DNA of 64,000 nucleotides from Patescibacteria group bacterium (lineage in GTDB: Bacteria; Patescibacteriota; CPR2; UBA1875): positions 9,797-73,796 of the forward strand of contig JAQVJW010000002.1 of NCBI GenBank assembly GCA_028694925.1, given 5' to 3'. This document shows, in pieces, positions 6,230-62,903 of the stretch. The notes beneath the pieces are model-generated. The model was not told the DNA's origin, did no database searches, and worked only from the letters and a program-made list of their open reading frames with translations. Within the stretch, counting starts at the first letter, position 1, and each line of letters starts with the position of its first letter. Both the position numbers and the translations under genes were made by a program.

Positions 6230-6233
6230 GGTG

Positions 6234-20158: not shown

Positions 20159-20527
20159 ATGTCGGGCCCATTTGGACCTTGGTTCGAAGACAGGCCAAAG
20201 GAAGGCTGGGATGGAGTTACTGTCCATGTGTCCGAAGGCAGAATACCTCAGGTGATCGAAGCTATTGAGCGTATTGAGAGCCGTCGGGACATCCAATCCC
20301 ATCTTCGGATCGTTCACGCACTGCGAGGTGAAGAGCTTGTTGTCAGCGTAGTTGCAGGCGACCTCGCTCGGTTCTACTCTCGCGTCATCATTCCTCTGGG
20401 AACTATCGTCCCCGGTTCGATGCCGCACATGATTACGGCTCAGGTGAAATTCGAGTCGAATTCACCTTCGAGCCGTAATCACAACGACCGCCAATCAACG
20501 GAAACTTATAATTGTGAGGACCGCTGA
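20159..20527 (+). CDS. Hypothetical protein in a GC-rich insert
   Basis: AGGAGG RBS 6 nt before the ATG. It is followed by a GACCGC-TGAAAG-GCGGTC hairpin. No recognisable domain. Confidence 0.4.
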   Translation: MSGPFGPWFEDRPKEGWDGVTVHVSEGRIPQVIEAIERIESRRDIQSHLRIVHALRGEELVVSVVAGDLARFYSRVIIPLGTIVPGSMPHMITAQVKFESNSPSSRNHNDRQSTETYNCEDR

Positions 20528-20597
20528 AAGGCGGTCTTCACTTTATGAAGTTCATGCATTTCTCGCTTCGTTGAATAAGATGTACAACACCCGCCGA

Positions 20598-20620
20598 GTA
20601 TTGCGACAAAATGTCGCAAT
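20598..20620. promoter_or_regulatory. Palindromic operator-like site ATTGCGACA-aaa-TGTCGCAAT upstream of the AbiEi promoter
   Basis: Perfect 9-bp inverted repeat. It shares the core GTATTGCGACA with the operator at 39308..39356. Confidence 0.5.
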
Positions 20621-20657
20621 TTGCCCAGACTGGTAGTTGAGTATAGTGTCTTTTTAC

Positions 20658-20726: not shown

Positions 20727-21356
20727 ATGAAGTATCTAAACCTTAAAGAAGAGCTCAGTGATTTCATCATCTTTTCACTTTTGGATATCAAAAAAATCGA
20801 ACCAAATTTTGACCGCAGACGTTTAAGCGAGTGGCAAGATAAGGGATATATTCAAAAGGTGCGAAGGGGTTATTATATTTTTTCAGATCTTGAAATAACC
20901 GACGAAGTTTTGTTTCTAATCGCTAATCGGCTATATGTTCCATCATATATTTCATTAGAGATGGCACTAAACTATTATGGACTAATTCCTGAGGGGGTCT
21001 ACAGCCTTACCTCTGTTACAACCAAGCTGCCTAAGGATTTTAAAGCTCCAATTGCAAACTTTAGTTATCGACAGGTTAAACCAGAATTATTCTTTGGGTA
21101 TCGCCTAGAAAAAGTTGGCAATCAAAATTACAAAATTGCAGAAATAGAAAAGGTGGTTCTAGATTACCTTTATCTCAATCCAGAGATGGATAATGAGGCT
21201 AATTTTTCAGAATGGCGTTTTAATTTTGATACCTTTCGGGAAAAGGCAGATATGGAGAGGTTTGCTACATATCTAAGTAATTTTAATAGTCCCAGCTTAA
21301 ATACTCGGGTTAGGAAGTTTATAAAACATATGGAGAAACATAATGTTAACAATTAG
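20727..21356 (+). CDS. abiEi: AbiEi antitoxin-family transcriptional regulator (type IV TA/Abi)
   Basis: AbiEi_4-like N-terminal wHTH. Overlaps the downstream AbiEii gene by 14 nt. Confidence 0.75.
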   Translation: MKYLNLKEELSDFIIFSLLDIKKIEPNFDRRRLSEWQDKGYIQKVRRGYYIFSDLEITDEVLFLIANRLYVPSYISLEMALNYYGLIPEGVYSLTSVTTKLPKDFKAPIANFSYRQVKPELFFGYRLEKVGNQNYKIAEIEKVVLDYLYLNPEMDNEANFSEWRFNFDTFREKADMERFATYLSNFNSPSLNTRVRKFIKHMEKHNVNN

Positions 21357-22122
21357 TCAGATAGAGGAACAATACCCCGAAAATCTAAGGCCTTTTAAGA
21401 GAGGTATTTTACGGGAGTATTTACAGTACAAGATATTAGAAATTATTTTTAACTCAAAATATGCTGGCAAGCTTTCATTTCTTGGTGGTACGGCACTCCG
21501 TATTGTATACGGTAACACCCGTTTTTCTGAAGATTTAGATTTTGACAACTTTGGACTTTCAGAAGAAGAGTTTAGCGAAATTGCTACAATAATCAAAAAG
21601 GGTCTTTCAGCTCAAGGTCTTATGGTTGAAATGAACACGATTTCTAAGGGCGCCTTCCGGTGCAATATTCGTCTTCCCGGGGTTTTCTTTGAAAACGAAC
21701 TTTCTGGACATCCGGAAGAAAAGATTTTGATTCACATAGACACCGTGTCTCATAAATTTGACTATAGACCAGATAAAAAGATTCTAAACAAATTTGATGT
21801 CTTTTCGGAAATATTTGTAACACCTCTTGATATTATTCTCTCTCAAAAGTTTTATGCAACCGTAAATCGAAAAAGAGCGAAAGGTAGAGACTTTTTTGAT
21901 ATTATGTTTTTGCAATCACGAACTAAGCCTAATTATGACTATCTAAAAGAGAAAATAGGGATAACAAACAGCAAAGAATTAAAGGCCTTGCTAGCAGTTG
22001 AATTTAAAGATTTAAATTTCAAAGAATTGGGCCGAGATGTTCAGCCCTTTTTGTTTAATCCAACCGACGCCAAGAGGGTTGAAAAGTTTAAAGAATTTAT
22101 CGAAGAAGCCGATTTGGGTTAA
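21343..22122 (+). CDS. abiEii: AbiEii/AbiGii nucleotidyltransferase toxin (DUF1814)
   Basis: FLGGTALRIVYGNTRFSEDLDFDN, a Pol-beta-type NTase motif typical of AbiEii. Confidence 0.85.
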   Translation: MLTISQIEEQYPENLRPFKRGILREYLQYKILEIIFNSKYAGKLSFLGGTALRIVYGNTRFSEDLDFDNFGLSEEEFSEIATIIKKGLSAQGLMVEMNTISKGAFRCNIRLPGVFFENELSGHPEEKILIHIDTVSHKFDYRPDKKILNKFDVFSEIFVTPLDIILSQKFYATVNRKRAKGRDFFDIMFLQSRTKPNYDYLKEKIGITNSKELKALLAVEFKDLNFKELGRDVQPFLFNPTDAKRVEKFKEFIEEADLG

Positions 22123-27527: not shown

Positions 27528-27572
27528 ATTTGTTTTTGTTTGCATAAGCACGCAAAAAAATGTAAAATTGAA

Positions 27573-30500
27573 ATGTCAGTTAAGGGGGTAGACCTGAAGA
27601 GGAAGGGAAAGACAGAAAAGGTTTTCTATAACCTCGGCTTATTCATAAATCGAGTTCGATTAGCATACCTTGAAGGGCTTAATAAAACGCATCTTAAGAT
27701 CCGTAAACTCCATGATGTGACCTACCAAAGAGGTGGGAAGTATAAGGCTTGGAGTGATAAACCATATTCATCCACTATTCACAAAACCGCTATGATAACT
27801 TTTATTGCTTCTTTTGTGATCTTTTCACTCGCCCAAAACATTTTCCCAAATCTCTTTAACCTCACAATCCCCAACAATGCCCTGGCGGGGTCAACTCAAG
27901 TTGTTTGGACGACCAAGGACCACTTTGAGAATAATGGCGCTACAAATTCCAATTATACTGGTGCGACAACCTCTACAGACGTGGTTATAAGTGGGGATAA
28001 CAATGATGTAACTGACTCCAATAATAATGACGATATAACACTTGGAAATCCTGATATAAATTTTGATACAATTTCGATATCTGAAGGTTATAATTATTCA
28101 TTAGCAATTAAGACTGATGGATCGCTATGGGCTTGGGGGTCTAACTCTAGTGGACAGCTTGGCTTGGGCGATACTACAACAAGGACAACACCAGTTCAAG
28201 TTGGTTCATCTATTGATTGGAGTTATATTGATACAGACGGTTCTTTGAATCCTAGTTCCTATGGCATTAAAACCGACGGCACATTATGGGCTTGGGGCGA
28301 AAATGAATGGCGACAACTTGGGCTCGGAGATACAACTGATAGATTAGTGCCCACTCAGGTGGGAACTTCCACAAACTGGAAAAGAGTTTCGGCTGGGGGT
28401 TCATTTGCGTTAGCAATTAAAACAGACGGCACATTGTGGGCTTGGGGGTCTAACTCTAGTGGACAGCTCGGCTTGGGCGATACTACAAATAGGTTGGTTC
28501 CAACCCAAGTGGGAGTCGGTGTGAATTGGGATTCCCTTGATACCGCTGAAGGAAGCTCCTTTGCAATAAAAACAGATGGCACATTATGGGCTTGGGGCGG
28601 CAATTATTATGGTCATCTTGGGCTCGGAGATACCACAAATAGGTTGGTTCCAACCCAAGTGGGATCTGATACTGATTGGAAGATCGTAAATACTGAAACA
28701 CCAAATATTTTTGGAGAAAGTTCTTTCGCAATAAAAAATGATGGAACATTGTGGGGTTGGGGCTATAATTATTCTGGTAGCTTGGGTTTAGGAGACACTA
28801 GTCCTAGACCTACTCCCACCCAAATCGGGACCGATACAAATTGGAAATATGTATTTGCGGGATCACATGCGGTAGGAATTAAAACAGACGGCACATTATG
28901 GGCTTGGGGGTCTAACTCTAGTGGAGAGCTTGGCTTGGGCGATACTACAAATAGGTTGGTTCCAACCCAAGTGGGATCTGATACTGATTGGAAGATGATT
29001 TCAGCTCCTAGGTCGACTACTATTGCTACCAAAACGAACAATACATTTTGGGGTTGGGGTTACAATGCTTATTCACAACTTGGTTTAGGCGATACAACAA
29101 ATAGGTTGGTCCCAACCCAAGTGGGATCTGATACGGATTGGCTTGGGGTTGTTGTGGAATATCCATCGACAGGTTCTCTTACAGAACTAAAAGTTGATGC
29201 TGGTTCTGGTAACAAAGCTTCTTGGGCTAGTGTCTCCTGGAACGAAGAAATACTTGCAAATACCGACATTATTTTTAACGTCCGCACTTCAGACGATAAT
29301 GCAACCTGGAGTGATTGGAGTGCTGATTTAACGACACCCGGTGGGTCTAGTTTATCTTCCGCTGACCCTTCTAGGTATCTTGAAATTAAGGTAACCCTTT
29401 CTAGTTCCGACGGACTCAACACCCCAACCCTAAATGATTTCACGGTTACCTACGACACCCTCGAAGCCCCGGTTAATGAAAACATCGTTCTTACAAAGAC
29501 CGATGACTCTAGCCTATATACTTCATCTGGTACCCTAGTATCAGGTGGCATAGCTGGTGCCTATAGTAACGAATCATCTCTAAGAATTTCTGCCACTGGT
29601 CTTACGTGTGGCGGAGGTGATTCTGGAGAGCCAGCTTGTGAAGGTACTTCTACAAACATTAGACCCGAGGTAGAAGTCTCAAACATCACTGATACAGACT
29701 TTTCAACCCCAGTCTTTACGGGAGAAGCCGCTCAAGGCTCTGACTACGTTGATGCTACGGGCCTTACGGCTGGTGAATCATATCATATTAGAGTTCGAGC
29801 GATTGATGATGAGGGAAGAGTCTCTGCTTGGACCAATTATGTTGGTGATGCTACGGCCATAACCATTGAACAAACCCCACCGACGGGGACGGTTGTGATT
29901 GATGAAGGGGAATATACTAAAGATGCCACAGTTAATTTGAATCTATCCGCAGCGGATGAAGGTGGCTCAGGGCTTTCCCAAATGCGATTTAGTAATTCTG
30001 GTGCTGAGGGGCAATGGAGTGATTGGGAAACATATGCAACCTCTAAGGCTTGGGATATTACAAATGCTACTTATGGTGGTAACACTAACGAAGAAGAAAA
30101 GACTGTTTATGTGCAGTATAAAGACAATGCAGGGAATATAAGTGGAACATGGCTACAGACGAGTGATGAGGATTTTAATGCAGGGACAAAAGACCAAATA
30201 TCTGTTTCAGGTGACTTATATAGACTAACGATGGATTGGATATTAGGTCCAGTGGCTGGGATTGAGGTATACAAAGAAGATCAAATTGGAGCAGCTTGGC
30301 AGACTTCAAACACTGACTGTCCCGCACCTCAATGCAACGGATCATATCTCGTTGATCCTTTTTTGAATCCAGAGGTTGATTTTTCGGCTTATCCTGCTCA
30401 GAATGCCTGTAAGAACATTGGGGGAAGATTGCCCACCCCTGGTGAATTGGGCGATATTTATACTTATAAGTTGGATTATGGTAATAACTTTACGTATCAT

Positions 30501-33500
30501 ACTTCTTTTTATCACTGGACAAATGCAGAAACCTTTCTAGGATCTGATGCTTTTTTCCAATATTTCTCCACTGGCCTCACTGGTGCCAGAGCGAAAAACC
30601 AGCTACATTATTCTAGGTGCGTAAGGAGCGAAGGAACTGGTTCAAATGAATATAGTACAACAGGGGTTTATACCTCTTCTGTTAAGGACAACATCAATTT
30701 CAAAAACTATAGCCGCTTACACTGGTCAGCTAATATTCCCTCAGAAACAGGCGCTGATGCGCTTCGATTCCAGGTAGCCTCAAATAACGACAATGTAACC
30801 TGGAACTATGTTGGCCCAGATGGAACGGCCGGGACATACTATGATGCCGACGACAATGGCATACAAATACATTCCTCGCACAACGGACACAGATATATAA
30901 GATATAAAGCCTATCTTCAAACAGCCAATTCTAGTTATACCCCCACTGTTTATGATGTTGGAATCGAAGTTCTAAGCATTAACGCTTCCATCCTTTACGA
31001 CCACACTCCTCCCGCAAACACTGAAGCAACTATCACCTATCCTACTGCTGGGGAATCGCTTATTGGTGCCACCGAAGAAGAGATAACCTGGGATGATACC
31101 AAAATAACCGACCCAGGCGATAATGCCTCTGGCCTTTTGGCTGATGGCACGACGGCCATTACCATTCAGTTTACTTCTGATAATGGTAACAACTGGAGTA
31201 CAGTAGAATCCGGTCTTCCTAACTCTGGCTCATATACCTGGACTGTCCCTAATAACTCAACCTGCGTTAACCAGTGTCGCATTGCCGTTCTGGCTCAAGA
31301 TAAAGCCGGTAATGAAAACACCCCTGCGGATGCCAATACTACCTCGGCCCTCTTTTCCATCATTGCCGACTCTCAAGCCCCTCAGTGGGATGCAGGAACA
31401 GTTCTTGACGTAAGTAACACCAAGTATATTAGTGGAGCCACTACTTGGACCGATGCTACCCCAACCCTATCCTGGACTCCTGCTCCAACTGACCCCGCCC
31501 CTGGAAGCGGTATTGCCGAATATGAAGTTATCTTTGAAGGTGCCACAGCCGAAACTATTACTGGTCTTACGACCACTGAAGCCACTCCAACTCTCGCAGA
31601 AGGAGTCCATGAGTGGTATGTAAACGCGATTGATGGGGCCGGCCTTTCTGCTAATACTAAAGATGAACTCTCACGTACGAAAACCATTTCGGTAGATGCC
31701 ACTGCTCCGAATGCAACCCTAAATATTATTTCCCTTACAGGTGGTGCGGCTACTAACTCTTGCACTGTAGCGATTAACCTTGCCGATCAGGTGGAAGTAG
31801 GTTCAGGGATTTCCTCGATCCAGTATTCCAATGACGAACTTATCTGGAGCTCCCTTGGCGAGGGTTCCACCTGGGATCTTTGTTCGGCCAGCTCTACTAA
31901 AGGTACAAAAACAGTCTACGCCCGCCTAATCGATAATGTGGCTAATCAACGAACCATTTCAAGTACCATCCTTTATGAAGATACACTACCCACGAACCCC
32001 TCTGCTGTAACGGCGACCCTTGTTCCCCCAGGGGATGTGCCATCTACCTATGTCGATGATGCTTGGGTTGGTAACTCCTCAATCTCTATCGAGTGGAGCG
32101 GTGAAATCGATCCTGAACCAAACTCAAGTGGCGTTGCGAGTTACGTTGTCTATCGCTCCACAGATAACGGTGCCTACACCGAAGTTTCGGCTGATTCGGC
32201 TTCCCCCTATGTAGATACGGGTCTCGTTGATGGTCATAATTACAAATATATTATTAAAGTGATTGATGATGCCGGTAATAGCTCCCTTTACCAGACAAAC
32301 CCAGTAATTGGGGAACTTAATGTAGCCGATATTACGAGTCCCGAGCCACCTGAAAATTTCAATGCCTCGGGAACAGATTCAACAACAATTGATGTTACCT
32401 GGAACTCGGCGCCGGAAAACTCAATCTCTCACTCTGGTAAGGCCGATAGCTATACAATTGAAAGAACGGCTGATAGTGCCTTGGGTTCTTCTGAGCCAAC
32501 TAATGATGATACCTGTAATACCTATACCTATTCTGATACCATTCAATCGCCAATTACTTTTGAGCAAGGTGGAGTTTATGATCCCGGTAACGATAAGTAT
32601 ACTATTACCGATACGGTTAATGCTGAAGAGTGGTACTACTACCGAATAAAAGCAATTGACGAAAGACCCTCTGACTCTGACTATACTTGTTTTAAGGCTC
32701 GCGGTAACTTTGCGCCTGAATTCCCTCAAGAGAATATCAACCTTAGTGCAGATACTGTGGTCCCTGGCGATGAAGTTACCATTACATTTACAGCAACTGA
32801 CTTTGATGGGGCCACCGACCTTGATACTGGTAATGCCATCCAACAACTTAAAATCCAAGATGGGGCCCTGGCCGAAGTCCTTGCCTATACCGAGGTTACC
32901 GAAAAAGAAGCATATAATGACGGTGCCCGTTATGGCTACACCTATACCTATGGCTACACTGTCCCAGAGACGGCTAAATACGGCACCTATACCGTAACCA
33001 TTAATGTGGCTGACTCTGTAGCAGTTGGTAGCCCGGGTGATAACTTCCATAATCAAACCAAACAAGTGCAGTTTAAGGTGCCACCAGCCGCTCCAACCTC
33101 ACTTTCGGCTACTGGCTATACCTCAACAAGTGTTAATCTTACCTGGACGGCTCCCGGGAATGCCGGAAACCAGGCTGGGCTTCGAGGGACTAACCCTTAC
33201 TCCGTAAAAAGAAGGTCTTATGGTAGCTCTGATCCTTTTGTTCATCTTGCCTATTCAAATGCCACCTCATATACTAACTCCGGTCTTGCCTTGGGGACTG
33301 CCTATGAATACCAAGTAGTTGCCTTTGATATCAATGGGAACGAGGGTCCCGCGTCAAATAACTCTAATGCTATTCCGCCAGCCCCAGCGACCCCAGCGTC
33401 AGCGACCGTGCGTGACGCTTCTCATACCTCAATCGATTTAGGGGGTACCTACCCATTACGTTACTTTGTGACTTGGGATGCGGTTACCGAATCATCTGTC

Positions 33501-35285
33501 CCTGACTTTAAAGGGTACAAAGTCTATCGAAGTACTGATGGTGGAGAGTATACCTATCTAGATACCATAGACTGTGACACCCTCGGTGAGAACCGGACTT
33601 ACTATTTAGACCTTCATACTGCCGCGGACGAAGGTACTTCTTATCAATATCAGGTTCATACCTGGGATGAAGCGGGAAACATTGGTGATGGGGTTACGAC
33701 CCTAGCGACTGATGCTAGTGTAACGCCGACTGTTACCACTCCAACTTTGGATTCTAAAGGTGTCAGTTGGATTAAGGTTAAGTGGACGACCGATCAAGAA
33801 GCATATAGCTTAGTAGAATACAAAAAAGCTGATGCTTCAAGTTATTCTATTGCTGGCCAAAAATCAATAATCACCGAAAAGACCGGTGATAGCTACCAAC
33901 ACACAGTAACTATTAGGGGACTTGAGAAGAACCAAGATTACAATATTCGGGTTAAATCTGTCAATCAAAGTAATATTATGAGCGCTTCATCAAACGAGAT
34001 TACAGTTAAAACTGAGAACTTTGCTATTAGTGATGTTAAAAAAGATATTAAGGCCTCATCGGCCACTATCTCTTGGAACACAGGTTCGGTACCTTCAAAT
34101 GCGATTGTTATCTATAACAAAATAGGCAGTGGAGCTCAGTCGGATACTTCTGATAACCCACCAAAAGAGACAATGAAGACAAGCCATTCCGTTGAGATTA
34201 GTAACCTTACTCCAGGGGACTATTCCTTCTACGTAAAGAGCTATGACGCTGAAGGAAACCTAGCCGAGGCTGGTAATACCAACCTATATACCTTCACTAT
34301 CACTGGTTTCGATACTGGTACCCTCTCAGACCCTAAGGCCGGTAAGATTGAAGAACAAGATATTACGGCAACAAGTGCCAAGATAACTTGGACCTCAACC
34401 GTCTCTACTTCATCCTGGGTAGACTATGGTACCACTTCGGGTAACTATGGTAAGAGTACCGGCTCCGATACCCTAACGATTGACCACATCGTTACCCTTG
34501 AAGGGTTAACCCCAGGTCAAACCTACTACTACATTGTTCGGGGCCTTGATGCTAATGGGACCGAGTACAAGTCTCAGGAGTATTCTTTTGTTGCTCTTGC
34601 TCGTCCTTCTATCTCAAATGTTGAAGTTCTCGAAGTTACCTCATATACCGCGCGTATTAGGGTCGAGGTCACGAAAGAGACCGAAGCCTCAATTACTTAC
34701 GGGATTAATGGTGCCTTTAATGAGAAAGCAGGGGGCGGCTCACTAGCTCGAGTTCATGATATTGAGCTTACAAACCTTACTGATAAATCAAACTACTCTT
34801 TCTATGTTGATGTTAAGGATAGTGCTGGAAATACGGCCAAGAGTGAGACCAAAACCTTCAAAACCCCACTTGATACAACTGGTCCTACCATCTCCTCGGT
34901 TAAGATAGACCTTCTTCCAATTGGAGAGAGTGATGAATATGCCCAAGCAATCATCTCCTGGACTACTGATAAGCCAGCCACTACCTTAGTTATGTATGAC
35001 GAAGGGGTTATTGGTGGAGAGTATGGTTCATCCTCAATCGAAGACACCTCCTTAAATACCGCCCACACCGTGATTGTAAAAGAGCTTTTACCTTCTACTA
35101 CCTACAGGTTTCAACTGGTTTCAAAAGACAAACGAGGGAATGAGTCGAAATCAGCAGACTACAACTTTGTTACCCCATCTCGTGAGAAATCTATCCTACA
35201 GCTCATCTTAAAGTCACTCGAGGAGACCTTCTCCTGGGTTCGTAATGTGGGGGGATTCTTTAGGAATATAGGGGAGAAGTTTTAA
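27573..35285 (+). CDS. Giant surface protein (about 2,570 aa) with N-terminal RCC1-like beta-propeller repeats followed by many fibronectin-III/Ig-like domains
   Basis: More than 8 tandem DGTLWAWGSNSSGQLGLGDTTNRLVPTQVG RCC1-type repeats, then repeated blocks with WT/WTS/YYY motifs. The start is uncertain: the ORF track uses TTG at 27540, the first ATG is at 27573, and a TM/signal-anchor segment (MITFIASFVIFSLA) lies about 85 aa in. Confidence 0.75.
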   Translation: MSVKGVDLKRKGKTEKVFYNLGLFINRVRLAYLEGLNKTHLKIRKLHDVTYQRGGKYKAWSDKPYSSTIHKTAMITFIASFVIFSLAQNIFPNLFNLTIPNNALAGSTQVVWTTKDHFENNGATNSNYTGATTSTDVVISGDNNDVTDSNNNDDITLGNPDINFDTISISEGYNYSLAIKTDGSLWAWGSNSSGQLGLGDTTTRTTPVQVGSSIDWSYIDTDGSLNPSSYGIKTDGTLWAWGENEWRQLGLGDTTDRLVPTQVGTSTNWKRVSAGGSFALAIKTDGTLWAWGSNSSGQLGLGDTTNRLVPTQVGVGVNWDSLDTAEGSSFAIKTDGTLWAWGGNYYGHLGLGDTTNRLVPTQVGSDTDWKIVNTETPNIFGESSFAIKNDGTLWGWGYNYSGSLGLGDTSPRPTPTQIGTDTNWKYVFAGSHAVGIKTDGTLWAWGSNSSGELGLGDTTNRLVPTQVGSDTDWKMISAPRSTTIATKTNNTFWGWGYNAYSQLGLGDTTNRLVPTQVGSDTDWLGVVVEYPSTGSLTELKVDAGSGNKASWASVSWNEEILANTDIIFNVRTSDDNATWSDWSADLTTPGGSSLSSADPSRYLEIKVTLSSSDGLNTPTLNDFTVTYDTLEAPVNENIVLTKTDDSSLYTSSGTLVSGGIAGAYSNESSLRISATGLTCGGGDSGEPACEGTSTNIRPEVEVSNITDTDFSTPVFTGEAAQGSDYVDATGLTAGESYHIRVRAIDDEGRVSAWTNYVGDATAITIEQTPPTGTVVIDEGEYTKDATVNLNLSAADEGGSGLSQMRFSNSGAEGQWSDWETYATSKAWDITNATYGGNTNEEEKTVYVQYKDNAGNISGTWLQTSDEDFNAGTKDQISVSGDLYRLTMDWILGPVAGIEVYKEDQIGAAWQTSNTDCPAPQCNGSYLVDPFLNPEVDFSAYPAQNACKNIGGRLPTPGELGDIYTYKLDYGNNFTYHTSFYHWTNAETFLGSDAFFQYFSTGLTGARAKNQLHYSRCVRSEGTGSNEYSTTGVYTSSVKDNINFKNYSRLHWSANIPSETGADALRFQVASNNDNVTWNYVGPDGTAGTYYDADDNGIQIHSSHNGHRYIRYKAYLQTANSSYTPTVYDVGIEVLSINASILYDHTPPANTEATITYPTAGESLIGATEEEITWDDTKITDPGDNASGLLADGTTAITIQFTSDNGNNWSTVESGLPNSGSYTWTVPNNSTCVNQCRIAVLAQDKAGNENTPADANTTSALFSIIADSQAPQWDAGTVLDVSNTKYISGATTWTDATPTLSWTPAPTDPAPGSGIAEYEVIFEGATAETITGLTTTEATPTLAEGVHEWYVNAIDGAGLSANTKDELSRTKTISVDATAPNATLNIISLTGGAATNSCTVAINLADQVEVGSGISSIQYSNDELIWSSLGEGSTWDLCSASSTKGTKTVYARLIDNVANQRTISSTILYEDTLPTNPSAVTATLVPPGDVPSTYVDDAWVGNSSISIEWSGEIDPEPNSSGVASYVVYRSTDNGAYTEVSADSASPYVDTGLVDGHNYKYIIKVIDDAGNSSLYQTNPVIGELNVADITSPEPPENFNASGTDSTTIDVTWNSAPENSISHSGKADSYTIERTADSALGSSEPTNDDTCNTYTYSDTIQSPITFEQGGVYDPGNDKYTITDTVNAEEWYYYRIKAIDERPSDSDYTCFKARGNFAPEFPQENINLSADTVVPGDEVTITFTATDFDGATDLDTGNAIQQLKIQDGALAEVLAYTEVTEKEAYNDGARYGYTYTYGYTVPETAKYGTYTVTINVADSVAVGSPGDNFHNQTKQVQFKVPPAAPTSLSATGYTSTSVNLTWTAPGNAGNQAGLRGTNPYSVKRRSYGSSDPFVHLAYSNATSYTNSGLALGTAYEYQVVAFDINGNEGPASNNSNAIPPAPATPASATVRDASHTSIDLGGTYPLRYFVTWDAVTESSVPDFKGYKVYRSTDGGEYTYLDTIDCDTLGENRTYYLDLHTAADEGTSYQYQVHTWDEAGNIGDGVTTLATDASVTPTVTTPTLDSKGVSWIKVKWTTDQEAYSLVEYKKADASSYSIAGQKSIITEKTGDSYQHTVTIRGLEKNQDYNIRVKSVNQSNIMSASSNEITVKTENFAISDVKKDIKASSATISWNTGSVPSNAIVIYNKIGSGAQSDTSDNPPKETMKTSHSVEISNLTPGDYSFYVKSYDAEGNLAEAGNTNLYTFTITGFDTGTLSDPKAGKIEEQDITATSAKITWTSTVSTSSWVDYGTTSGNYGKSTGSDTLTIDHIVTLEGLTPGQTYYYIVRGLDANGTEYKSQEYSFVALARPSISNVEVLEVTSYTARIRVEVTKETEASITYGINGAFNEKAGGGSLARVHDIELTNLTDKSNYSFYVDVKDSAGNTAKSETKTFKTPLDTTGPTISSVKIDLLPIGESDEYAQAIISWTTDKPATTLVMYDEGVIGGEYGSSSIEDTSLNTAHTVIVKELLPSTTYRFQLVSKDKRGNESKSADYNFVTPSREKSILQLILKSLEETFSWVRNVGGFFRNIGEKF
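28080..29160 (+). repeat. Near-identical tandem DNA repeats of about 150-160 nt encoding the RCC1 blades
   Basis: Long exact matches, for example 28421-28510 against 28881-28985 and 28621-28690 against 28941-29000. Confidence 0.8.
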
Positions 35286-35336: not shown

Positions 35337-36287
35337 ATGGCCCGAACACCAGTTATTAAAACGAGTGGCCTAGAGAAGACCTTTGATTTAGGGGCCGTTA
35401 AGGTAACAGCACTATCCGGGGTAAATCTTGAGATATATTCAGGTGAGTTTATCGTCTTTTTTGGCCCCTCTGGTTGCGGTAAATCTACCTTAATGAGCAT
35501 GATTGCCGGACTTCAACCACCTTCTGGGGGTAAGATTTGGATTCGTGGTGAGAATCTTGGGGAATATAATGAAAATCAACTGGCAGAATACCGAAGAACG
35601 AAGATTGGGATGGTTTTTCAGGCTTTTAACCTCATTACTAGTATGAATATTGTCGAAAATATCGCGCTTCCTTTGTCTTTTGCTCGGATTCCAAGGAAGA
35701 GAAGGATTAATAGGGCGGAGAATCTTCTTGAGACAGTTGCGATGAGCGATTACAAGCATCATACCCCATCAGAGCTCTCTGGTGGGCAACAGCAGCGGAT
35801 TGCCCTTGCTCGGAGTCTTGTCGCGAACCCCTGGATTGTCCTTGCCGATGAGCCAACCGGTAACCTCGATTCAAAATCAGCTAACGATGTCATGAGACTT
35901 TTAATTAAGTTAAATCGTAAATCAAAAAGAACCGTTATCCTGATTACTCACAACCCAGAATACTTGGTTTATGCCGATAGGGTTTTTCGTCTTAAGGATG
36001 GTAAGGTTGTCGATGTTGAGGTCAACAGTGACGCCAAGACCGAGATAGTGCCGGAGACGAAGAAGGATGAAGGAAAGGAAAACAAGAAAAAGGGGAAGAG
36101 GGGAAAAAAGAAAGAGCAAGAAGAGCAAGAAGAGGCCGATACTATACCAGAGTCATCACCTCCCCTGGATGATACGGATACCCCACTTGATGTAACGAGT
36201 GATTTTGACGAAACCGAAGAAAAGTCGAAAGAAAAGAAAGATAAGAAAAAGAAGGCTAAGATGAAGCCTATGAGGATCGGGGAATGA
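35337..36287 (+). CDS. ABC transporter ATP-binding protein (MacB/LolD-type) with a K/E-rich low-complexity C-terminal tail
   Basis: [25 protein letters not shown] and [11 protein letters not shown]. The tail of about 90 aa is charged. Confidence 0.9.
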
Positions 36288-37465
36288 GATTTATTGATAT
36301 CCTAAGGATGGCTCTTGGCAATCTGCGCCGTAATAAGATGCGAACCACTCTTACAGTGGCTGGGGTAGTAGTTGGTATCGGAGCGATTGTTTTCTTGGTC
36401 TCCTTGGGCTTTGGGCTACAGGATTTGATGGTCCGAAAGGTGGCTAATCTTGAGGCCCTAACGATGATTAAAGTATCACCCGGGAATGAAGAAGGGCAAC
36501 TTCTTACTGAAGAAGTAGCCGATAGGATAAAAGGATTTGGGGAGGTAACCGATACTTCTCGTATCCTCTCAAGCCCGGGCTCGTTTCAGTATAATGATTC
36601 ATTCTCAGACCCCTTAATTGCCGGAGTTGAACCCCAGTACATGGCGCTTGAAGAGCTCTCGATGGTGAATGGGACCCAAGAACTTAGTGAGGCGGATGTT
36701 ATACTCTCGACCGCGGCCCTTGATGCCATTGCCCTTTCCGCCGATGACGCAATCGGTAAAGAGATAGAGCTTGATGTCTACAAGCGAGATGAAGTTGGGG
36801 AAATTACTCAGAATAAAGAGACATTAAATCTTAAAATTGTTGGGGTTTTTGATTTTGAAAAGACCAAGAAAGGCTACGTCCACTTCAATAATCTAAAAAA
36901 GATAGGTAAGACCCCATATTCAGAGATCAAGGTAAAAGTGGCCGAAAGAAACCAGGTTACAAATGTCAGAAAGACGATCGAATCGATGGGTTATCCTACT
37001 ACTTCAGTCAAAGATACGGTAGATCAGATAGACCAAGCCTTTATGATTATTAAATCGGTATTGGGTGGCTTTGGAATGATTGCCCTCTTTGTTGCCGCGA
37101 TTGGTATTTTTAACACGATGACCATCTCGCTTCTTGAGAGGACTCATGAGATTGGCGTAATGAAAGCCATAGGAGGGCGAAACAAAGATGTCTCCCGAGT
37201 ATTTACAACCGAAGCGGCTACAATCGGACTCTTGGGTGGTATCTTTGGAGTATTAGCCGGCTATCTTCTTGGGGTCTTGCTTGGAGGGCTGGTGAACTTT
37301 ATCGCTACAAGTGTTGGTGGGGAAGCAAATGACTACTTTTCACTCCCAATTGACTTTATCCTGATCGTCGTTGCCTTTTCTTTTGTAGTTTCAACAGTCG
37401 CTGGGATTTATCCGGCCAGAAGAGCGGCTAAGCTTAATCCGCTTGAAGCTCTTCGTTACGAATAG
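36284..37465 (+). CDS. ABC transporter permease, FtsX/MacB-like
   Basis: N-terminal TM, a periplasmic domain and a C-terminal FtsX four-TM bundle ending PLEALRYE. Overlaps the ATPase gene by 4 nt. Confidence 0.85.
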   Translation: MRFIDILRMALGNLRRNKMRTTLTVAGVVVGIGAIVFLVSLGFGLQDLMVRKVANLEALTMIKVSPGNEEGQLLTEEVADRIKGFGEVTDTSRILSSPGSFQYNDSFSDPLIAGVEPQYMALEELSMVNGTQELSEADVILSTAALDAIALSADDAIGKEIELDVYKRDEVGEITQNKETLNLKIVGVFDFEKTKKGYVHFNNLKKIGKTPYSEIKVKVAERNQVTNVRKTIESMGYPTTSVKDTVDQIDQAFMIIKSVLGGFGMIALFVAAIGIFNTMTISLLERTHEIGVMKAIGGRNKDVSRVFTTEAATIGLLGGIFGVLAGYLLGVLLGGLVNFIATSVGGEANDYFSLPIDFILIVVAFSFVVSTVAGIYPARRAAKLNPLEALRYE

Positions 37466-37518
37466 AGCGTTTGGTTGGGGTGGATAATTTAACCAATACA
37501 ACCACTAGGATAAAATAA

Positions 37519-38307
37519 TTAGGTAATGAGTGGCTTTTCCCATCCAAAACAAGTTTCAGTATTTTTTAAGGCCTTGAAGGCAATCGCAGATGAAGGGTCT
37601 GCTTTCCTAAAATCAATAAGAAGCTCGACGCAACTACTAATAAATTCACCAACCGTTCCGTTAGAATCGTCAACGCCACCATGACTAAGTTTTCTATCAA
37701 GCTTTAGCAAGGTGTCTAGGACGAGTTTTGCTGATGACTTACTGGCCGGTAGCTGGGAGAATAATGCCGAAAGCCTATTGCATCCTTCCTCTAAAGAATT
37801 TTGATACTGAAACCAAATCTTTGACGGGCCGTTATATGTTTTGATATAACGGCTCGCTTCTGTAATTTTCTTTTTTAATTCTGCGATTTTGTTCGGGTCA
37901 ATTTCACCAACTAGACCCGAAAATGACAGGTTATTGTGCTGTTTTTTATCTTCTTTAGAGAGTTTTTTACCATCCATAACTGCCCATATAGCAACAGCAA
38001 CCACATGCTTACAAAGATAATCCTTTTGACCTAAGTAGCAGTTACAATCGGCATAGTTGAAATCCTTCATCGACACAAAAACATCATAGATGGTAGTACC
38101 TGCTACCTTTGCAGAAAATCCCTTAAAGACCTTATGAAATTCCTTGATTTTTCTAGACTCATAGATACCAACTGCCCGTTGGAAGGTTTTTTCATCAGTC
38201 GAAAACTTTATTTTATCTAAATCAAAATAGGGCCTGATATTTTCGAAATTAGATGGCATAATTTTCTCTAGCATATTTTGCCTGGGAGATAAATACATCT
38301 TTTGCAT
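37519..38307 (-). CDS. SWIM zinc-finger domain protein
   Basis: CNCYLGQKDYLCKHVVAV matches the SWIM pattern CxCxnCxH. Overlaps the upstream Fic gene. Confidence 0.6.
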   Translation of the reverse strand: MQKMYLSPRQNMLEKIMPSNFENIRPYFDLDKIKFSTDEKTFQRAVGIYESRKIKEFHKVFKGFSAKVAGTTIYDVFVSMKDFNYADCNCYLGQKDYLCKHVVAVAIWAVMDGKKLSKEDKKQHNNLSFSGLVGEIDPNKIAELKKKITEASRYIKTYNGPSKIWFQYQNSLEEGCNRLSALFSQLPASKSSAKLVLDTLLKLDRKLSHGGVDDSNGTVGEFISSCVELLIDFRKADPSSAIAFKALKNTETCFGWEKPLIT

Positions 38308-39292
38308 TACCGAGTGCTCCTAGCTCATAATAGGCGAGGATTGCCAGCTTATATGTATTTACATCTACTGCCCTTAATGAGAGCGGGAATGAATGGTTAG
38401 CATTCAGTATTGCGTTCGCAAGAATTCTAGCAGTCCTTTTGTTACCATCATTAAAAGGCTGGAGGTAACATATATATACGAATGATATTAAGGCCCTTTC
38501 AAAGACATCTTTTTTTGAATTAATAACTTCGCAAAACCTTTCTATCTCCTCATTAATTTGATGCTTGTTATCAAGGGGTCGATATGCACTACCCGTGATG
38601 CCCACTAATCTCTCCCTTATTCCTGAATCAATAAGGTTTTCCGCTAAAATTTTATGAAGCTCTAGTATTAGCGACTTTGAAATCTTCCCCGCGAATAAGT
38701 CCTTGTTTTCTTCCGAAAATTCTAGTGCCTTCTTGTGATTTAAAATCATCTGGGTTTCGTCTTTAGTACGTCCGGGTGCCACAAGCCCTTCTTTTAATAA
38801 GGATTCGGTCTCTAAAAGAGTATAGGTGTTCCCTTCGATTTGGGAAGACTTCCATGAAAGCTCGATTGTGATTCTTTCACGTTCTCTTTTGAGGATATCT
38901 TTAGGAGCGCTCTGATACTTTGATTTGTAGATATTATTGTTTTTAATAAGATTCTTTTTCTCATTATTTGTGAAAAGATTATTTTCCTTTAACAAATCAA
39001 GCCTTTTAAAGTCGTAATTAATTCTTCCACGGTTCTCATTTTCAAAAAATTTCTGGAGTGTATTCTTTGAAAATTTTAACCCCAGGATACCTAATGGAGT
39101 TGGTTTATACTTAACAGCTCTTGCTTTTCCAGACTTTTCAACCAAGCCAAGCATAATAAGTTCATTTAAGTCTCTTTGCAGGGTTCTGGCTGTGAGTGAA
39201 TTAAACTCTGGTAACTCAAGAAAATCAGGTAGATTATCTACCCCAAACATTAACTGACCCATAATATTGTACTGCCTGTTTGATATTTCCAT
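38249..39292 (-). CDS. Fic-family protein with an N-terminal wHTH and a degenerate active-site motif (QPFNDGNKRTAR)
   Basis: Fic core with inhibitory motif SSQIEGN. The catalytic His and the second Gly of the motif are replaced (Q...K). Confidence 0.75.
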   Translation of the reverse strand: MEISNRQYNIMGQLMFGVDNLPDFLELPEFNSLTARTLQRDLNELIMLGLVEKSGKARAVKYKPTPLGILGLKFSKNTLQKFFENENRGRINYDFKRLDLLKENNLFTNNEKKNLIKNNNIYKSKYQSAPKDILKRERERITIELSWKSSQIEGNTYTLLETESLLKEGLVAPGRTKDETQMILNHKKALEFSEENKDLFAGKISKSLILELHKILAENLIDSGIRERLVGITGSAYRPLDNKHQINEEIERFCEVINSKKDVFERALISFVYICYLQPFNDGNKRTARILANAILNANHSFPLSLRAVDVNTYKLAILAYYELGALGNAKDVFISQAKYARENYAI

Positions 39293-39307
39293 ACTTTAAA
39301 TATATAG

Positions 39308-39356
39308 AGTATTGCGACATTTGTAAAGAGTATTGCGACATTATGTCGCAATACTC
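39308..39356. promoter_or_regulatory. Operator: 29-bp perfect palindrome GAGTATTGCGACAT-T-ATGTCGCAATACTC plus an upstream direct half-site, overlapping a TTTACA-17-TATATT promoter for the minus-strand Fic/SWIM operon
   Basis: Read directly. The -10 ends about 6 nt before the ATG at 39292 (minus strand), giving a leaderless transcript. Confidence 0.55.
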
Positions 39357-39427
39357 CCAAAAGTTACCAGTAATAACAATTAGTGCTTCATTAATGTTGG
39401 CAAATATATATGGACAATCGAGCAAAT

Positions 39428-39682
39428 CTATCCAATAATCCCCTTTATTTTCTCTAGGATTCCAAACTGAGTCTCAAGTAGATAAACTCCAACCAGAAGG
39501 GTAACAAAGAATCCAATTGTAATTACAGAGCCCCTAAGGTCACGGAAGATATATCTAAGTTGGGGGTTCTCGGTCTCGTGGGCCTTAACCTTGATCTCCC
39601 CTTTTGACTTTGAGGCTACGGCTAGCCTCTCTGGGTCTACGTGGGTAAAGCGATGTTTCTTTGGCTTCTTTTTCATAATCAT
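39428..39682 (-). CDS. Hypothetical tail-anchored small protein
   Basis: Basic N-terminus and a C-terminal TM helix. Confidence 0.3.
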   Translation of the reverse strand: MIMKKKPKKHRFTHVDPERLAVASKSKGEIKVKAHETENPQLRYIFRDLRGSVITIGFFVTLLVGVYLLETQFGILEKIKGIIG

Positions 39683-39720
39683 ATTTTACCCTCTCTTGCT
39701 GTTCTTTACAAAAAAACAAT

Positions 39721-40230
39721 ATGTTTGATATAATAGTCAGGCACATGTTGGATACAACTCCTCTTATTGCAGGTGGGATTATAATCACGGTCATCATGGG
39801 GTGGCTTATTTTTTTAACGATTAAGCTCCAGGGTCTTAGGAAAAAGGGCGAAATTATCTTTTCTGATAAGGATCCTGAAAAAATCAGTAAGCTGATTGAA
39901 CGGTACTTTGAGAGTATTAAAGTAGTTGATAAGAATAACAAGAAGCTTGAGCGTACCCTAAAGGAGACCAAAGAGCTCGCCGAGCTTTCTGTTAACAAGG
40001 TAGCCCTGCTTCGCTACAACCCATTTGGAGATGTTGGTAGTGATCAAAGCTTCTCGCTTTGTCTTCTAAATAGTCATGAAGATGGTTTTGTGATATCATC
40101 AATCCACTCAAGAGAAGGTACAAGGGTTTATTCAAAGTCCGTTCAGGGTGGAGTTTCGCGCTACAATCTTTCGCGTGAAGAAGAGAGGGCCATCAGACTC
40201 GCAATAGGTAAAGACAAAAAAGATAAATAA
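39721..40230 (+). CDS. DUF4446-like protein
   Basis: N-terminal TM helix, then VALLRYNPFGDVGSDQSFSLCLLN...SSIHSREGTRVYSK...RYNLSREEERAIRLA, which resembles DUF4446. Confidence 0.45.
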   Translation: MFDIIVRHMLDTTPLIAGGIIITVIMGWLIFLTIKLQGLRKKGEIIFSDKDPEKISKLIERYFESIKVVDKNNKKLERTLKETKELAELSVNKVALLRYNPFGDVGSDQSFSLCLLNSHEDGFVISSIHSREGTRVYSKSVQGGVSRYNLSREEERAIRLAIGKDKKDK

Positions 40231-40277
40231 TTAACAGGGCCGCAGGTCGGCGTGGGGTATATCCCCGGGAGAGAAAA

Positions 40278-40700
40278 ATGTTTGAAAAGGGTCGGGAAGA
40301 AATCGTAAAATCAGGAAGCTCGGAGACAATTGTTGGGGCTTCAGTCAAACTTAAAGGTAACCTTAAAAGCGATGGTGATGTTTTAATTGAGGGAGTTGTC
40401 ACTGGTGACCTTAAAACAAAAGGTTCGGTTAAGGTCGGGGAGGCCGCGAGTGTGGTGGCGAACGTTAAGGCCGAGAATATCGTTATCGCCGGGAGTGTTC
40501 AGGGGAATATCGAGATAAAAGATAGGCTTGAGATTACATCAACCGGAAGGGTGGTTGGAGACATTGTCACAAACGTCCTCTCAATCGCGCCGGGAGCTGT
40601 GTTTACCGGAAAATGTAGTATGCCAGATAGCCCAAGGGATGAGGTAGTAGAGCCAACGGCTGAAATCGAAGAAACAGAAGAAGAAAAAGAAGAGAAATAA
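40278..40700 (+). CDS. Bactofilin (polymer-forming cytoskeletal protein, DUF583)
   Basis: Repetitive beta-helical G/V-rich core (VKVGEAASVVANVKAENIVIAGSVQGNIEI) and an acidic tail. Confidence 0.8.
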   Translation: MFEKGREEIVKSGSSETIVGASVKLKGNLKSDGDVLIEGVVTGDLKTKGSVKVGEAASVVANVKAENIVIAGSVQGNIEIKDRLEITSTGRVVGDIVTNVLSIAPGAVFTGKCSMPDSPRDEVVEPTAEIEETEEEKEEK

Positions 40701-42950: not shown

Positions 42951-43322
42951 AATGCTTAGTTAGCCTATAAGCCGGGTTCTGTCGGGGACATTCATCTATC
43001 TATGCGACAGGACCAACTATACCCGCGTTAGATTACGCTGAAGGACCTTCTTCTAAGAGATTCCCCTAAGAAAAAGCATAACTTCCAGATACAGTGGCCC
43101 ACCTGTCTTGCACCGAATAGGGTTTACCGCTACATATTGTCACCAATATGTACTGTGAGCTCTTACCTCACTCTTTTCACCTTTACCACGCAAGCGTGGC
43201 AGTATTGTCTCTGTGGCACTTTCCCGAGCCTTACGACTGGTTGTGTTTCACAACTATTCTTATCTATGGTGCCCGGACTTTCCTCTGCACGAGGCAGCGA
43301 ATGTCCAGCTAACTAAGCAACC
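42948..43322 (-). ncRNA. rnpB: RNase P RNA (bacterial type A)
   Basis: The reverse complement contains GAGGAAAGTCCGGGC (CR-I), AAAGGTGAAA...GGTAAGAGCTCAC (CR-IV) and GACAGAACCCGGCTTAT (CR-V). The P1 helix is GCUUAGUUAGC/GGCUAACUAAGC. End coordinates are approximate (within about 10 nt). Confidence 0.75.
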
Positions 43323-47908: not shown

Positions 47909-47985
47909 TGGTGGGTGGTACTGGATTCGAACCAGTGACCTCTGCAATGTCAATGCAACGCTCTAACCAACTGAGCTAACCACCC
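47909..47985 (-). tRNA. tRNA-Val (anticodon GAC), CCA-encoded
   Basis: Manual fold: acceptor GGGUGGU/ACCACCC, anticodon stem UUGCA/UGCAG with loop UUGACAU, and T-loop GGUUCGAAUCC. Confidence 0.85.
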
Positions 47986-57438: not shown

Positions 57439-57515
57439 CGGGGTGTGGCGCAGTTGGCTAGCGCGTACGCATGGGGTGCGTGAGGTCGCAGGTTCGAGTC
57501 CTGTCACCCCGACCA
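57439..57515 (+). tRNA. tRNA-Pro (anticodon GGG), CCA-encoded
   Basis: Manual fold: acceptor CGGGGUG/CACCCCG, anticodon stem UACGC/GCGUG with loop AUGGGGU, and T-arm GCAGGUUCGAGUCCUGU. Confidence 0.85.
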
Positions 57516-62516: not shown

Positions 62517-62903
62517 GGGGCTGACTTGGCTTCGACGGAAGTTACTTGAAATCAGAATAATGCAATTCGCGGTCGCATATCCGCGTTAACCAATATGTAA
62601 ACAAATAAGTGTAAAAACACTTGCCGCTAAAGTTAGAAATGCATTTAGCATGCCTGCTTTAGCAACTGTTGTCGCATAACTGCGGTAACCATCTGCTCCC
62701 CAACGTCCGATAGGGGTCAGCAGGTGCTAGAACTTCGGGCTGCTCTGGGTGACTTGCCTAAACCCAGCTAAGACTTAGGTAATTGGTTGTAAGTTTTTTC
62801 TTAGATCTTTAGCTTGCAACCGAGAAAAGAGATCTGAGTATGATTGCTAAAGTTGTTCTGGTTTTGCTTTCGGACGCGGGTTCAATTCCCGCCAGCTCCA
62901 CCA
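62517..62903 (+). ncRNA. ssrA: tmRNA (transfer-messenger RNA)
   Basis: 5' GGGGCUGACUUGGCUUCGACG and a 3' tRNA-like end GGACGCGGGUUCAAUUCCCGCCAGCUCCACCA. The internal tag ORF ends ...GCA TAA. Confidence 0.8.

Follow-up and report, generated by a model that had tools for sequence, protein, structure and literature searches.

Here, we report that a glutamine-type Fic gene of a Patescibacteria group bacterium typifies a large family and has a well-defined operator, very probably autoregulatory, and that it lies in a defence-rich slot beside a conserved SWIM gene. The gene, termed Fic(Q), and an overlapping gene for a SWIM zinc-finger protein occupy the minus strand of a 64,000-nucleotide (nt) stretch of contig JAQVJW010000002.1 (assembly GCA_028694925.1, positions 9,797 to 73,796), which is referred to as the window and in whose coordinates positions are given. 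An earlier annotation made from the same DNA (the original prediction) had proposed a Fic/SWIM two-gene cassette with a dedicated autoregulatory palindrome. Judged by gene order, the pair is not a conserved cassette, and the SWIM gene would be a neighbour in this genome rather than a regular partner. Taken as a whole, we find it fairly probable that Fic(Q) is a self-contained, self-repressed module juxtaposed with a conserved SWIM gene, and not part of a two-gene system.

The features on which this account is built are as follows (aa, amino acids).

38249-39292, minus strand: Fic(Q) gene, 347 aa, N-terminal winged helix and class-II-type Fic domain with a Gln/Lys motif (open reading frame [ORF], Pfam, AlphaFold, Foldseek)
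39101-39280, minus strand: winged helix-turn-helix (HTH), residues ~5-64 of Fic(Q), proposed operator-binding part (structure model and sub-threshold family-consensus matches)
38828-38848, minus strand: inhibitory-helix motif SSQIEGN, residues 149-155, with E153 as the inhibitory Glu (FICD alignment; match to the pattern [ST]xxxE[GN] at residue 149)
38426-38461, minus strand: Fic active-site loop QPFNDGNKRTAR, residues 278-289, with Gln replacing the catalytic His, Lys replacing the second Gly and the terminal Arg retained (codons, alignment)
39299-39327, minus strand: promoter-like site, TTTACA (39327-39322), 17-nt spacer, TATATT (39304-39299) (consensus scan, 10/12 matches)
39328-39356, no strand: operator palindrome GAGTATTGCGACAT-A-ATGTCGCAATACTC, abutting the -35 box upstream (repeat search; same place in 10 aligned promoters)
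39307-39320, no strand: third operator half-site ATGTCGCAATACTC, an exact copy, filling the -35/-10 spacer (repeat search; equivalent site in homologues)
37519-38307, minus strand: SWIM-domain gene, N-terminal SWIM zinc finger and conserved C-terminal helical domain without assigned function
38005-38046, minus strand: SWIM finger CNCYLGQKDYLCKH (CxCx8CxH) (codons; zinc ligands invariant in 29 homologues)
20596-20624, no strand: second operator-like palindrome GAGTATTGCGACAA-A-ATGTCGCAATTTGC (half-site search; 1 and 3 mismatches to the 14-mer, inverted arrangement)

Fic(Q) protein and family

By fold and profile, although not by a canonical active site, Fic(Q) is a member of the Fic/Fido group. 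It matched Pfam Fic PF02661 (E value, 6.4e-15; 56.2 bits against a cut-off of 24) over residues 204-296 and profile positions 2-93 of 93. When Fic(Q) was aligned by HMMER with FICD and C. elegans Fic-1, Q278 fell at the position of the catalytic His and K285 at that of the second Gly (lqpfndgnkrtar in Fic(Q) against vhpftdgngrtar), SSQIEGN coincided with the inhibitory TVAIEGN of FICD, and no alternative His was present anywhere in the active-site motif; codons 38426-38461 (minus strand) read Q P F N D G N K R T A R. The His-to-Gln and Gly-to-Lys substitutions and the retained inhibitory helix (SxxIEGN) of the original prediction are thereby borne out. Compared with the canonical motif HxFx(D/E)GN(G/K)RxxR, Fic(Q) has Gln278 for His, and the remainder is present. 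Because Gln sits at the catalytic-His position, we infer that canonical His-dependent AMPylation by Fic(Q) would be impossible.

The AlphaFold model (predicted local distance difference test [pLDDT], 83.9; predicted template modelling score, 0.84) consists of a winged helix of three helices and two strands (H5-15, H21-25, H35-47, E51-54, E61-64; pLDDT of the block, 84-94) followed by the Fic domain, and low confidence is confined to the flap (residues 222-239). No Pfam family matched the N-terminal HTH of the window protein; the family consensus gave sub-threshold winged-helix matches to HTH_DeoR (E value, 4e-4), HxlR, GntR, and MarR. Foldseek returned Fic-1, FICD, and BT_2513 as best matches (probability, 1.0), with template modelling scores of 0.51-0.57 on a Fic(Q) query that includes the extra N-terminal domain. 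The best NCBIfam match, TIGR01550 DOC_P1 (E value, 1.8e-5; 24.9 bits), fell below its cut-off of 38.65, and no Doc chain occurred among the PDB sequence matches. Since the structural matches are of class II, the FNDxNKRTA stretch of the loop is Doc-like, DOC_P1 is below cut-off, and no Doc structure was matched by sequence, Fic(Q) is a FICD-type scaffold bearing a Doc-like loop with Gln. As in class II Fic proteins, an intramolecular [S/T]xxxE[G/N] helix stands ahead of the Fic core (SSQIEG, residue 149) and is invariant in the family.

A database search with Fic(Q) yielded thousands of relatives, of which the best 120 were inspected. These were 57-100% identical to the query (>100 homologues at 57-78%) and nearly all 347 aa long. 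The motif was QPFxDGNKR in 106 and Q[A/V/S]FxDGNKR in 11, and the pattern search gave no Gln-type match in 3; Gln together with NKR was thus kept in 117/120 proteins, and also in 79/80 metagenome loci at identities down to 39%. Relatives with a named source were always from Patescibacteria, Saccharibacteria, or Berkelbacteria. Across a 25-homologue alignment (mean column identity, 72%), the invariant residues included Q278, F280, N281, D282, N284, K285, R286, and R289 of the motif; S149, S150, E153, G154, and N155 of the inhibitory helix; and R226, G231, I232, G234, and P239 of the flap. The predicted inhibitory Glu-Arg pair, E153 and R289, is therefore present and invariant. The winged helix was the least conserved region, a variability that fits a changing DNA specificity.

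To judge by these alignments, the Q..NKR motif is a conserved variant under strong purifying selection, and not decay, in a large Patescibacterial family. The word "degenerate" used for it in the original prediction has to be withdrawn, and a clade with this motif (D2) was already published in 2015 (PMC4454073).

Operator and promoter

The arms of the palindrome (39328-39341 and 39343-39356) are 14 nt each, 100% complementary and 1 nt apart; about 2e-4 perfect palindromes of such size are expected in 64 kb. The third half-site (39307-39320) is an exact copy in direct repeat at 21-nt spacing. Read along the minus strand, the order is GAGTATTGCGACAT-A-ATGTCGCAATACTC, TTTACA, one base, ATGTCGCAATACTC within the 17-nt spacer, TATATT, six bases, and ATG, so that TATATT ends 6 nt ahead of the Fic(Q) ATG at 39292.

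Ten promoters were aligned, from genes whose proteins are 53-78% identical (the closest homologues at 78% and 73%, seven more at 53-65%). They share one layout: half-site, N3, half-site, ~10 nt, half-site, -10 box, 6 nt, ATG. Nine of the 10, and the promoters at loci L165-L167 as well, place exactly 6 nt between a -10-like hexamer and the ATG, and those nine have no Shine-Dalgarno sequence. Four further loci on long contigs had the same operator layout. At its variable positions, the half-site differed between loci (TTGCGACA, TCCCGACA, TTCCGACA, TCGCGCCA) and agreed across the three sites inside each locus, as expected if a DNA-binding protein co-evolves with its own sites. In a distant subfamily (40-47% identity), ATCGTATCA-N3-TGATACGAT stood ~20-26 nt ahead of the ATG and was frequently joined by a third copy.

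With the -10 box ending 6 nt before the ATG, a leaderless transcript is implied, and the promoters suggest a leaderless or near-leaderless mRNA for the gene family. Because the operator layout is conserved and the half-sites co-vary locus by locus, autorepression of Fic(Q) by promoter occlusion is well supported at the sequence level. The operator belongs to the Fic(Q) gene and not to a Fic-SWIM pair: the palindrome of the original prediction is real (14-1-14) and, given its layout and co-variation in homologues, very probably an autoregulatory operator, although it is not dedicated to the two genes together.

We propose that the winged helix of Fic(Q) binds the three co-varying half-sites, probably as a dimer and a further subunit, and that their occupancy (the palindrome at the -35 box, the third site in the spacer) would shut off a leaderless transcript starting at or next to the ATG. 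The C-terminal FICD-like domain retains the entire loop for nucleotide binding as well as the terminal Arg, the flap for target docking, and the inhibitory Glu, and most likely binds a nucleotide and a conserved cellular partner. Fic(Q) would then be either a very slow Doc-like transferase, held off by Glu153-Arg289, or a ligand-sensing regulator. In this genome, it fills a slot ahead of SWIM that varies across species and contains defence and toxin genes.

SWIM gene and synteny

The SWIM protein matched Pfam SWIM PF04434 (E value, 4.3e-5; 23.4 bits against a cut-off of 19.6) with a CxCxnCxH signature, as originally read, and codons 38005-38046 (minus strand) translate as C N C Y L G Q K D Y L C K H. 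A database search placed it in a family of >1000 proteins. Aligned with 28 others, it was 52-58% identical to each; the four zinc ligands (three Cys and one His) were invariant, as were several motifs in the C-terminal part. The C-terminal helical domain (GPSxxWFxYQNSLxEG, GGVDDSDGTVG, ETCFGWE) is specific to Patescibacteria and matched no Pfam or NCBIfam family. The window protein was the most divergent family member in the sample (nearest-neighbour distance, 0.42).

Three start codons are candidates: ATG 38307 (262 aa), with AGGAG 9 nt 5' of it; ATG 38274 (251 aa), taken by the NCBI record; and ATG 38259 (246 aa), nearest to the usual homologue length of 238-247 aa. Depending on the start chosen, the overlap with Fic(Q), whose stop codon is at 38249-38251, is 59, 26, or 11 nt, in agreement with the ~10-60 nt first estimated. 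SWIM is probably transcribed in this genome by read-through from the Fic(Q) promoter, as the Fic(Q) gene fills the upstream slot so tightly.

Synteny was surveyed from both sides. On the Fic(Q) side, 80 metagenome loci round homologues were collected, 57 of them with at least 800 nt downstream, and six further distinct contigs (the closest homologues at 78% and 73%, and four long contigs) brought the total to 63 loci. A SWIM gene lay downstream of Fic(Q) in 0/63, the 78% and 73% identical relatives included, and none was found anywhere in the 80 metagenome loci. No gene cluster was seen more than 3 times beside Fic(Q), on either side, in ~55-66 loci. On the SWIM side, 80 genome loci round SWIM homologues were taken, one per species, and 78 gave a gene at -1 (directly upstream). 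Fic/Doc genes were counted there by motif regular expression and Pfam, a Fic(Q)-only profile hidden Markov model being too narrow for other Fic genes; 72/78 loci had no Fic or Doc gene at this position.

The six Fic/Doc genes at -1 were heterogeneous: one 144-aa Doc, three with HPFQDGNGRLSR, one with HPFCDGNGRIGR, and one of Gln type. In a permutation test (p, 0.46), the SWIM proteins beside them were no closer to one another than randomly drawn sets, and no Fic neighbour accompanied the nearest relatives of these proteins; a co-evolving Fic-SWIM clade was rejected on this test. Because the Fic types differ and the adjacent SWIMs are scattered in the family, Fic-SWIM adjacency has, by this comparison, arisen several times independently. 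A role for SWIM as a class-I Fic antitoxin (FicTA) was likewise rejected, [ST]xxxE[GN] being absent from the window SWIM and 25/29 family members. The original prediction had itself taken lack of synteny in other genomes as a refutation, and with 0/63 Fic(Q) loci and 6/78 SWIM loci showing the arrangement (the latter with any Fic/Doc gene), its cassette falls. Its further suggestion of a toxin/antitoxin-like or defence module survives in part: some connection with neighbourhoods of toxin and defence genes is plausible, whereas the two-gene unit is not conserved.

The genes round SWIM were assigned by Pfam as follows.

Position -1 (78 genes): RhuM 6, Fic 6, HsdS 4, NrdG-like radical SAM 4, ResIII/HsdR 3, KilA-N 2, reverse transcriptase 2
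Position -1, single cases: AbiEii, GmrSD, DUF433, DUF4143, PIF1
Position -2 (68 genes): HsdS, AbiEii, McrBC, RhuM, N6_Mtase, KAP NTPase, AlwI-type endonuclease, others
Position +1 (72 genes): mainly housekeeping or small HTH, namely, MnmA, NAD synthase, LexA-like, YceG, UvrC

Across the 78 species, the genes at -1 and -2 were varied, with defence and mobile genes abundant at both positions. PADLOC families matched numbered 327 at -1 against 62 at +1. The simplest reading is that SWIM forms the downstream border of a variable site in which defence and toxin genes abound, with Fic-family genes as common cargo, and SWIM may mark a defence-gene hot spot in Patescibacteria. RhuM was also considered as a hidden Fic relative and rejected (hhalign probability, 0.4%). 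Literature searches on SWIM in bacterial defence and on Fic in Patescibacteria found nothing specific.

Alternative explanations

Several observations weigh against a self-contained Fic(Q) module with SWIM as a mere neighbour. Fic/Doc-motif genes are enriched at SWIM -1 on the same strand (6/78 against 4/614 other positions; odds ratio, 12.7; Fisher p, 2.5e-4). Fic-SWIM gaps are often tight (2-153 nt, with an overlap in the window), for which a hot spot alone offers no obvious explanation, and RhuM-SWIM spacing is equally tight (-56 to 76 nt). PADLOC models matched both proteins, SoFic and PDC-S04 for Fic(Q) and PDC-S62 for the SWIM N terminus (E value, 2.6e-16). The second operator copy suggests that Fic(Q) may regulate more than itself. 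Lastly, Gln is strictly invariant, which speaks for a specific role in catalysis or binding; on the same ground, regulated transfer of an altered or very slow Doc-like kind, or stoichiometric target binding, would be favoured over simple decay. Fic(Q) may also be a pure sensor.

The alternative that survives best, although we regard it as unlikely, is that Fic(Q) is a pure pseudoenzyme transcription factor whose Fic fold senses a nucleotide or metabolite and which controls a small regulon including an AbiEi/AbiEii operon. The catalytic His is lost, and the conserved operator points to sequence-specific DNA binding as central to the family. The palindrome at 20596-20624, 18.7 kb from the Fic(Q) operator, shares with it the exact core ATTGCGACA-N3-TGTCGCAAT, and by our estimate such an identical 9-3-9 core would arise there by chance with a probability of ~1e-6. 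A TTGACA/TAAAAT promoter, whose -35 box follows the end of this palindrome after 33 nt, serves a two-gene operon at 20727-22122 (plus strand). The second gene of the operon is AbiEii (Pfam E value, 1.4e-18), and the first is AbiEi-like (NCBIfam E value, 1.2e-6, below cut-off). At metagenome locus L154 (4837-7409), homologues of AbiEi and AbiEii, sharing 38% and 43% identity with those of the window, come directly after a Fic(Q) homologue of 42% identity. Similarity to the Fic(Q) promoter stops at the palindrome edges, with no flanking homology, and duplicated DNA was rejected on that ground; a decayed second copy of Fic(Q), with the palindrome as its promoter, was rejected as well, tblastn having found no Fic(Q)-like sequence there. 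On the other side of this palindrome lies a terminator-like hairpin (~20516-20540). Against a pure transcription factor, a dead catalytic position usually drifts, whereas in Fic(Q) neither Gln nor the flap nor the Glu-Arg pair varies, a pattern that fits a regulated enzyme; moreover, a site ~33 nt upstream of a -35 box is unusual for a repressor. Searches over 5-10 kb round eight other Fic(Q) genes, and over the metagenome loci, turned up no further copy of the operator, a weak negative because this range is shorter than 18.7 kb.

We consider it improbable, and less likely than the preceding alternative, that SWIM is a general accessory partner of varied single-gene effectors (Fic, Doc, RhuM, AbiEii, type I restriction subunits), co-transcribed downstream of them, with Fic(Q)-SWIM as one instance of a modular design. 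Same-strand genes with short gaps make up 91% of the -1 neighbours, RhuM and Fic each hold this position in 6/78 species (gaps, -56 to 153 nt), and the PDC-S62 match is to a defence candidate. One Parcubacteria assembly has two SWIM loci (L016 and L056; LCPL01000028 and LCPL01000009), one with a Fic gene directly upstream, and the SWIM gene is therefore not strictly single-copy. However, half or more of the -1 genes either lack a family match or are not defence-like (NrdG-type radical SAM, DnaJ, and amidohydrolase among them), and the same-strand fraction downstream is also high (82%), so the strand bias is general. SWIM is ~50-58% identical across deep lineages with housekeeping genes downstream, and resembles a vertically inherited gene by an insertion hot spot. 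The protein also showed no enzymatic or known sensor fold when its C-terminal domain was compared with the PDB.

Two linked readings can be combined, and jointly we hold them to be about as improbable as the accessory-partner proposal. Gln-type winged-helix Fics would be phylum-wide His-independent regulators or effectors that tie toxin modules together transcriptionally, given the operator core at the Fic(Q) promoter and upstream of AbiEi/AbiEii and the adjacency at L154. SWIM would mark or work with a phylum-wide defence slot as a shared downstream component and not a bystander, since Fic, Doc, and RhuM genes have come to lie directly upstream of it on repeated, independent occasions, probably in a shared transcript with it.

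Least likely, and in our view doubtful, is a true toxin/antitoxin-like or defence operon in which SWIM neutralises, targets, or senses Fic(Q) and the palindrome controls both: the frames overlap on one strand, the minus-strand scan found no promoter-like or terminator-like site at the junction, the Fic/Doc enrichment and the PADLOC resemblances agree with it, and tblastn with the window Fic(Q) over the SWIM loci gave one match, a Gln-type Fic (41% identity) directly upstream of SWIM at L006, but SWIM does not follow Fic(Q) even in the closest relatives, most SWIM genes have no Fic/Doc gene at -1, the Fic partners come from unrelated subfamilies (144-aa Doc, canonical HPFxDGNGR, Gln type) beside unclustered SWIMs, Fic(Q) has its own inhibitory helix while SWIM carries no antitoxin motif, and the operator is conserved at loci without SWIM.

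Comparison with known systems

The nearest published group by motif is clade D2, an in-silico set of 45 sequences with the motif Qx[F|Y]x[D|E][G|V]NKR, whose conservation suggested to its authors a residual or altered activity or function (Khater and Mohanty 2015, Sci Rep, PMC4454073). QPFNDGNKR of Fic(Q) fits that motif exactly, with Gln for His and Lys as in Doc, and both groups are bacterial and conserved under selection; the likeness is at the level of the motif. D2 proteins are mostly single-domain and Doc-like, whereas Fic(Q) is 347 aa long with a winged helix, an inhibitory helix, and a terminal Arg on a FICD-like scaffold.

The best sequence and structure matches of Fic(Q) are class II Fic proteins (FICD/HYPE, Fic-1, BT_2513, SoFic), with which it shares an N-terminal [S/T]xxxE[G/N] helix before the core, paired with the last Arg of the motif. 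It differs from them in having Gln for His, Lys for the second Gly, and a winged helix that is N-terminal rather than C-terminal. Winged-helix domains also occur in SoFic, BT_2513, and Coxiella Fic2. The PADLOC SoFic match (E value, 5.6e-20) covers only residues 146-298 against profile positions 61-214 of 361 and represents generic Fic-core similarity, and Fic(Q) lacks the catalytic His of SoFic.

To P1 Doc, Fic(Q) is alike in the FNDxNKRTA stretch of its loop. In Doc, this Lys goes with inverted ATP binding and EF-Tu phosphorylation. Fic(Q) has core helices absent from Doc. The Doc loop, H-x-F-x-(D/N)-(A/G)-N-K-R, has a catalytic His and no terminal Arg (PMC4454073), whereas Fic(Q) has NKR with Gln for His and keeps the terminal Arg. 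Autoregulation via a DNA-binding module, as proposed here for Fic(Q), is reminiscent of Phd of the Phd-Doc system (Kinch 2009, PMC2686095); no Phd-type antitoxin gene was found beside Fic(Q), on either side, in ~55-66 loci, in a survey of ORFs of at least 70 aa.

HTH-Fic fusions have been described before, with the HTH proposed to regulate fic expression (Kinch 2009, PMC2686095). Those fusions are mostly of ArsR type with a canonical motif and an undefined operator, whereas Fic(Q) has a conserved one, and this operator is the kind of evidence that the proposal predicted. Unlike the SWIM fingers of MuDR transposases, SNF2-associated proteins, and ZSWIM8, that of the window belongs to a short, stand-alone protein, with no transposase or ATPase attached or adjacent.

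Genomic context

G+C content was 0.34-0.39 over the SWIM and Fic(Q) genes (37500-39500) and 0.42-0.47 in the flanking ATP-binding cassette (ABC) transporter and DUF4446 genes. A MacB/FtsX-type ABC transporter pair (35337-37465) has directly upstream of it an ORF of 2581 aa (TTG start; 27540-35285, plus strand), and the ORF upstream of Fic(Q) (39428-39682) had no family match. A terminator-like hairpin inside the Fic(Q) coding region (39243-39227) was set aside as chance level (2 found, 1.9 expected). Rfam gave no structured RNA in 36500-40500 up to an E value of 0.1; elsewhere in the window it identified bacterial RNase P RNA class A (42952-43316, minus strand), transfer-messenger RNA (62517-62903, plus strand), and two tRNAs (47912-47985, minus strand; 57439-57512, plus strand), and the window is therefore ordinary chromosomal DNA.

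The window holds a second Fic gene of canonical class II (7338-8228, plus strand; 296 aa) with HPFCDGNGRIGR and the inhibitory motif SNAIENS, preceded on the same strand by ORFs of 888 aa (3563-6229) and 290 aa (6168-7040). A gene with the same two motifs stands directly upstream of SWIM at L056. Among the Fic(Q) homologues, the closest (78%) has, at L162 (2279-3262), a divergent upstream recombinase-family gene (Pfam Recombinase, PF07508), and those at L166 and L168 lie within a few kilobases of reverse transcriptase (RVT_1) and bAvd genes, a combination characteristic of diversity-generating retroelements. Fic(Q) genes may often have mobile elements in their neighbourhood.

Significance

The proposed Fic/SWIM system should be dropped as a conserved unit. 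What takes its place is a Gln/Lys Fic variant that forms a very large, tightly conserved Patescibacterial family, known in silico and biochemically uncharacterised. Its invariant Gln, together with an intact nucleotide loop, flap, and Glu-Arg pair, makes it a clean test case for whether Fic folds can work without His or have been turned into sensors. The three-half-site operator and the fixed 6-nt spacing from -10 box to ATG offer a testable model of autorepression and leaderless expression in organisms that are nearly genetically intractable, and the slot ahead of SWIM may serve as a landmark for finding defence genes in Patescibacterial genomes.

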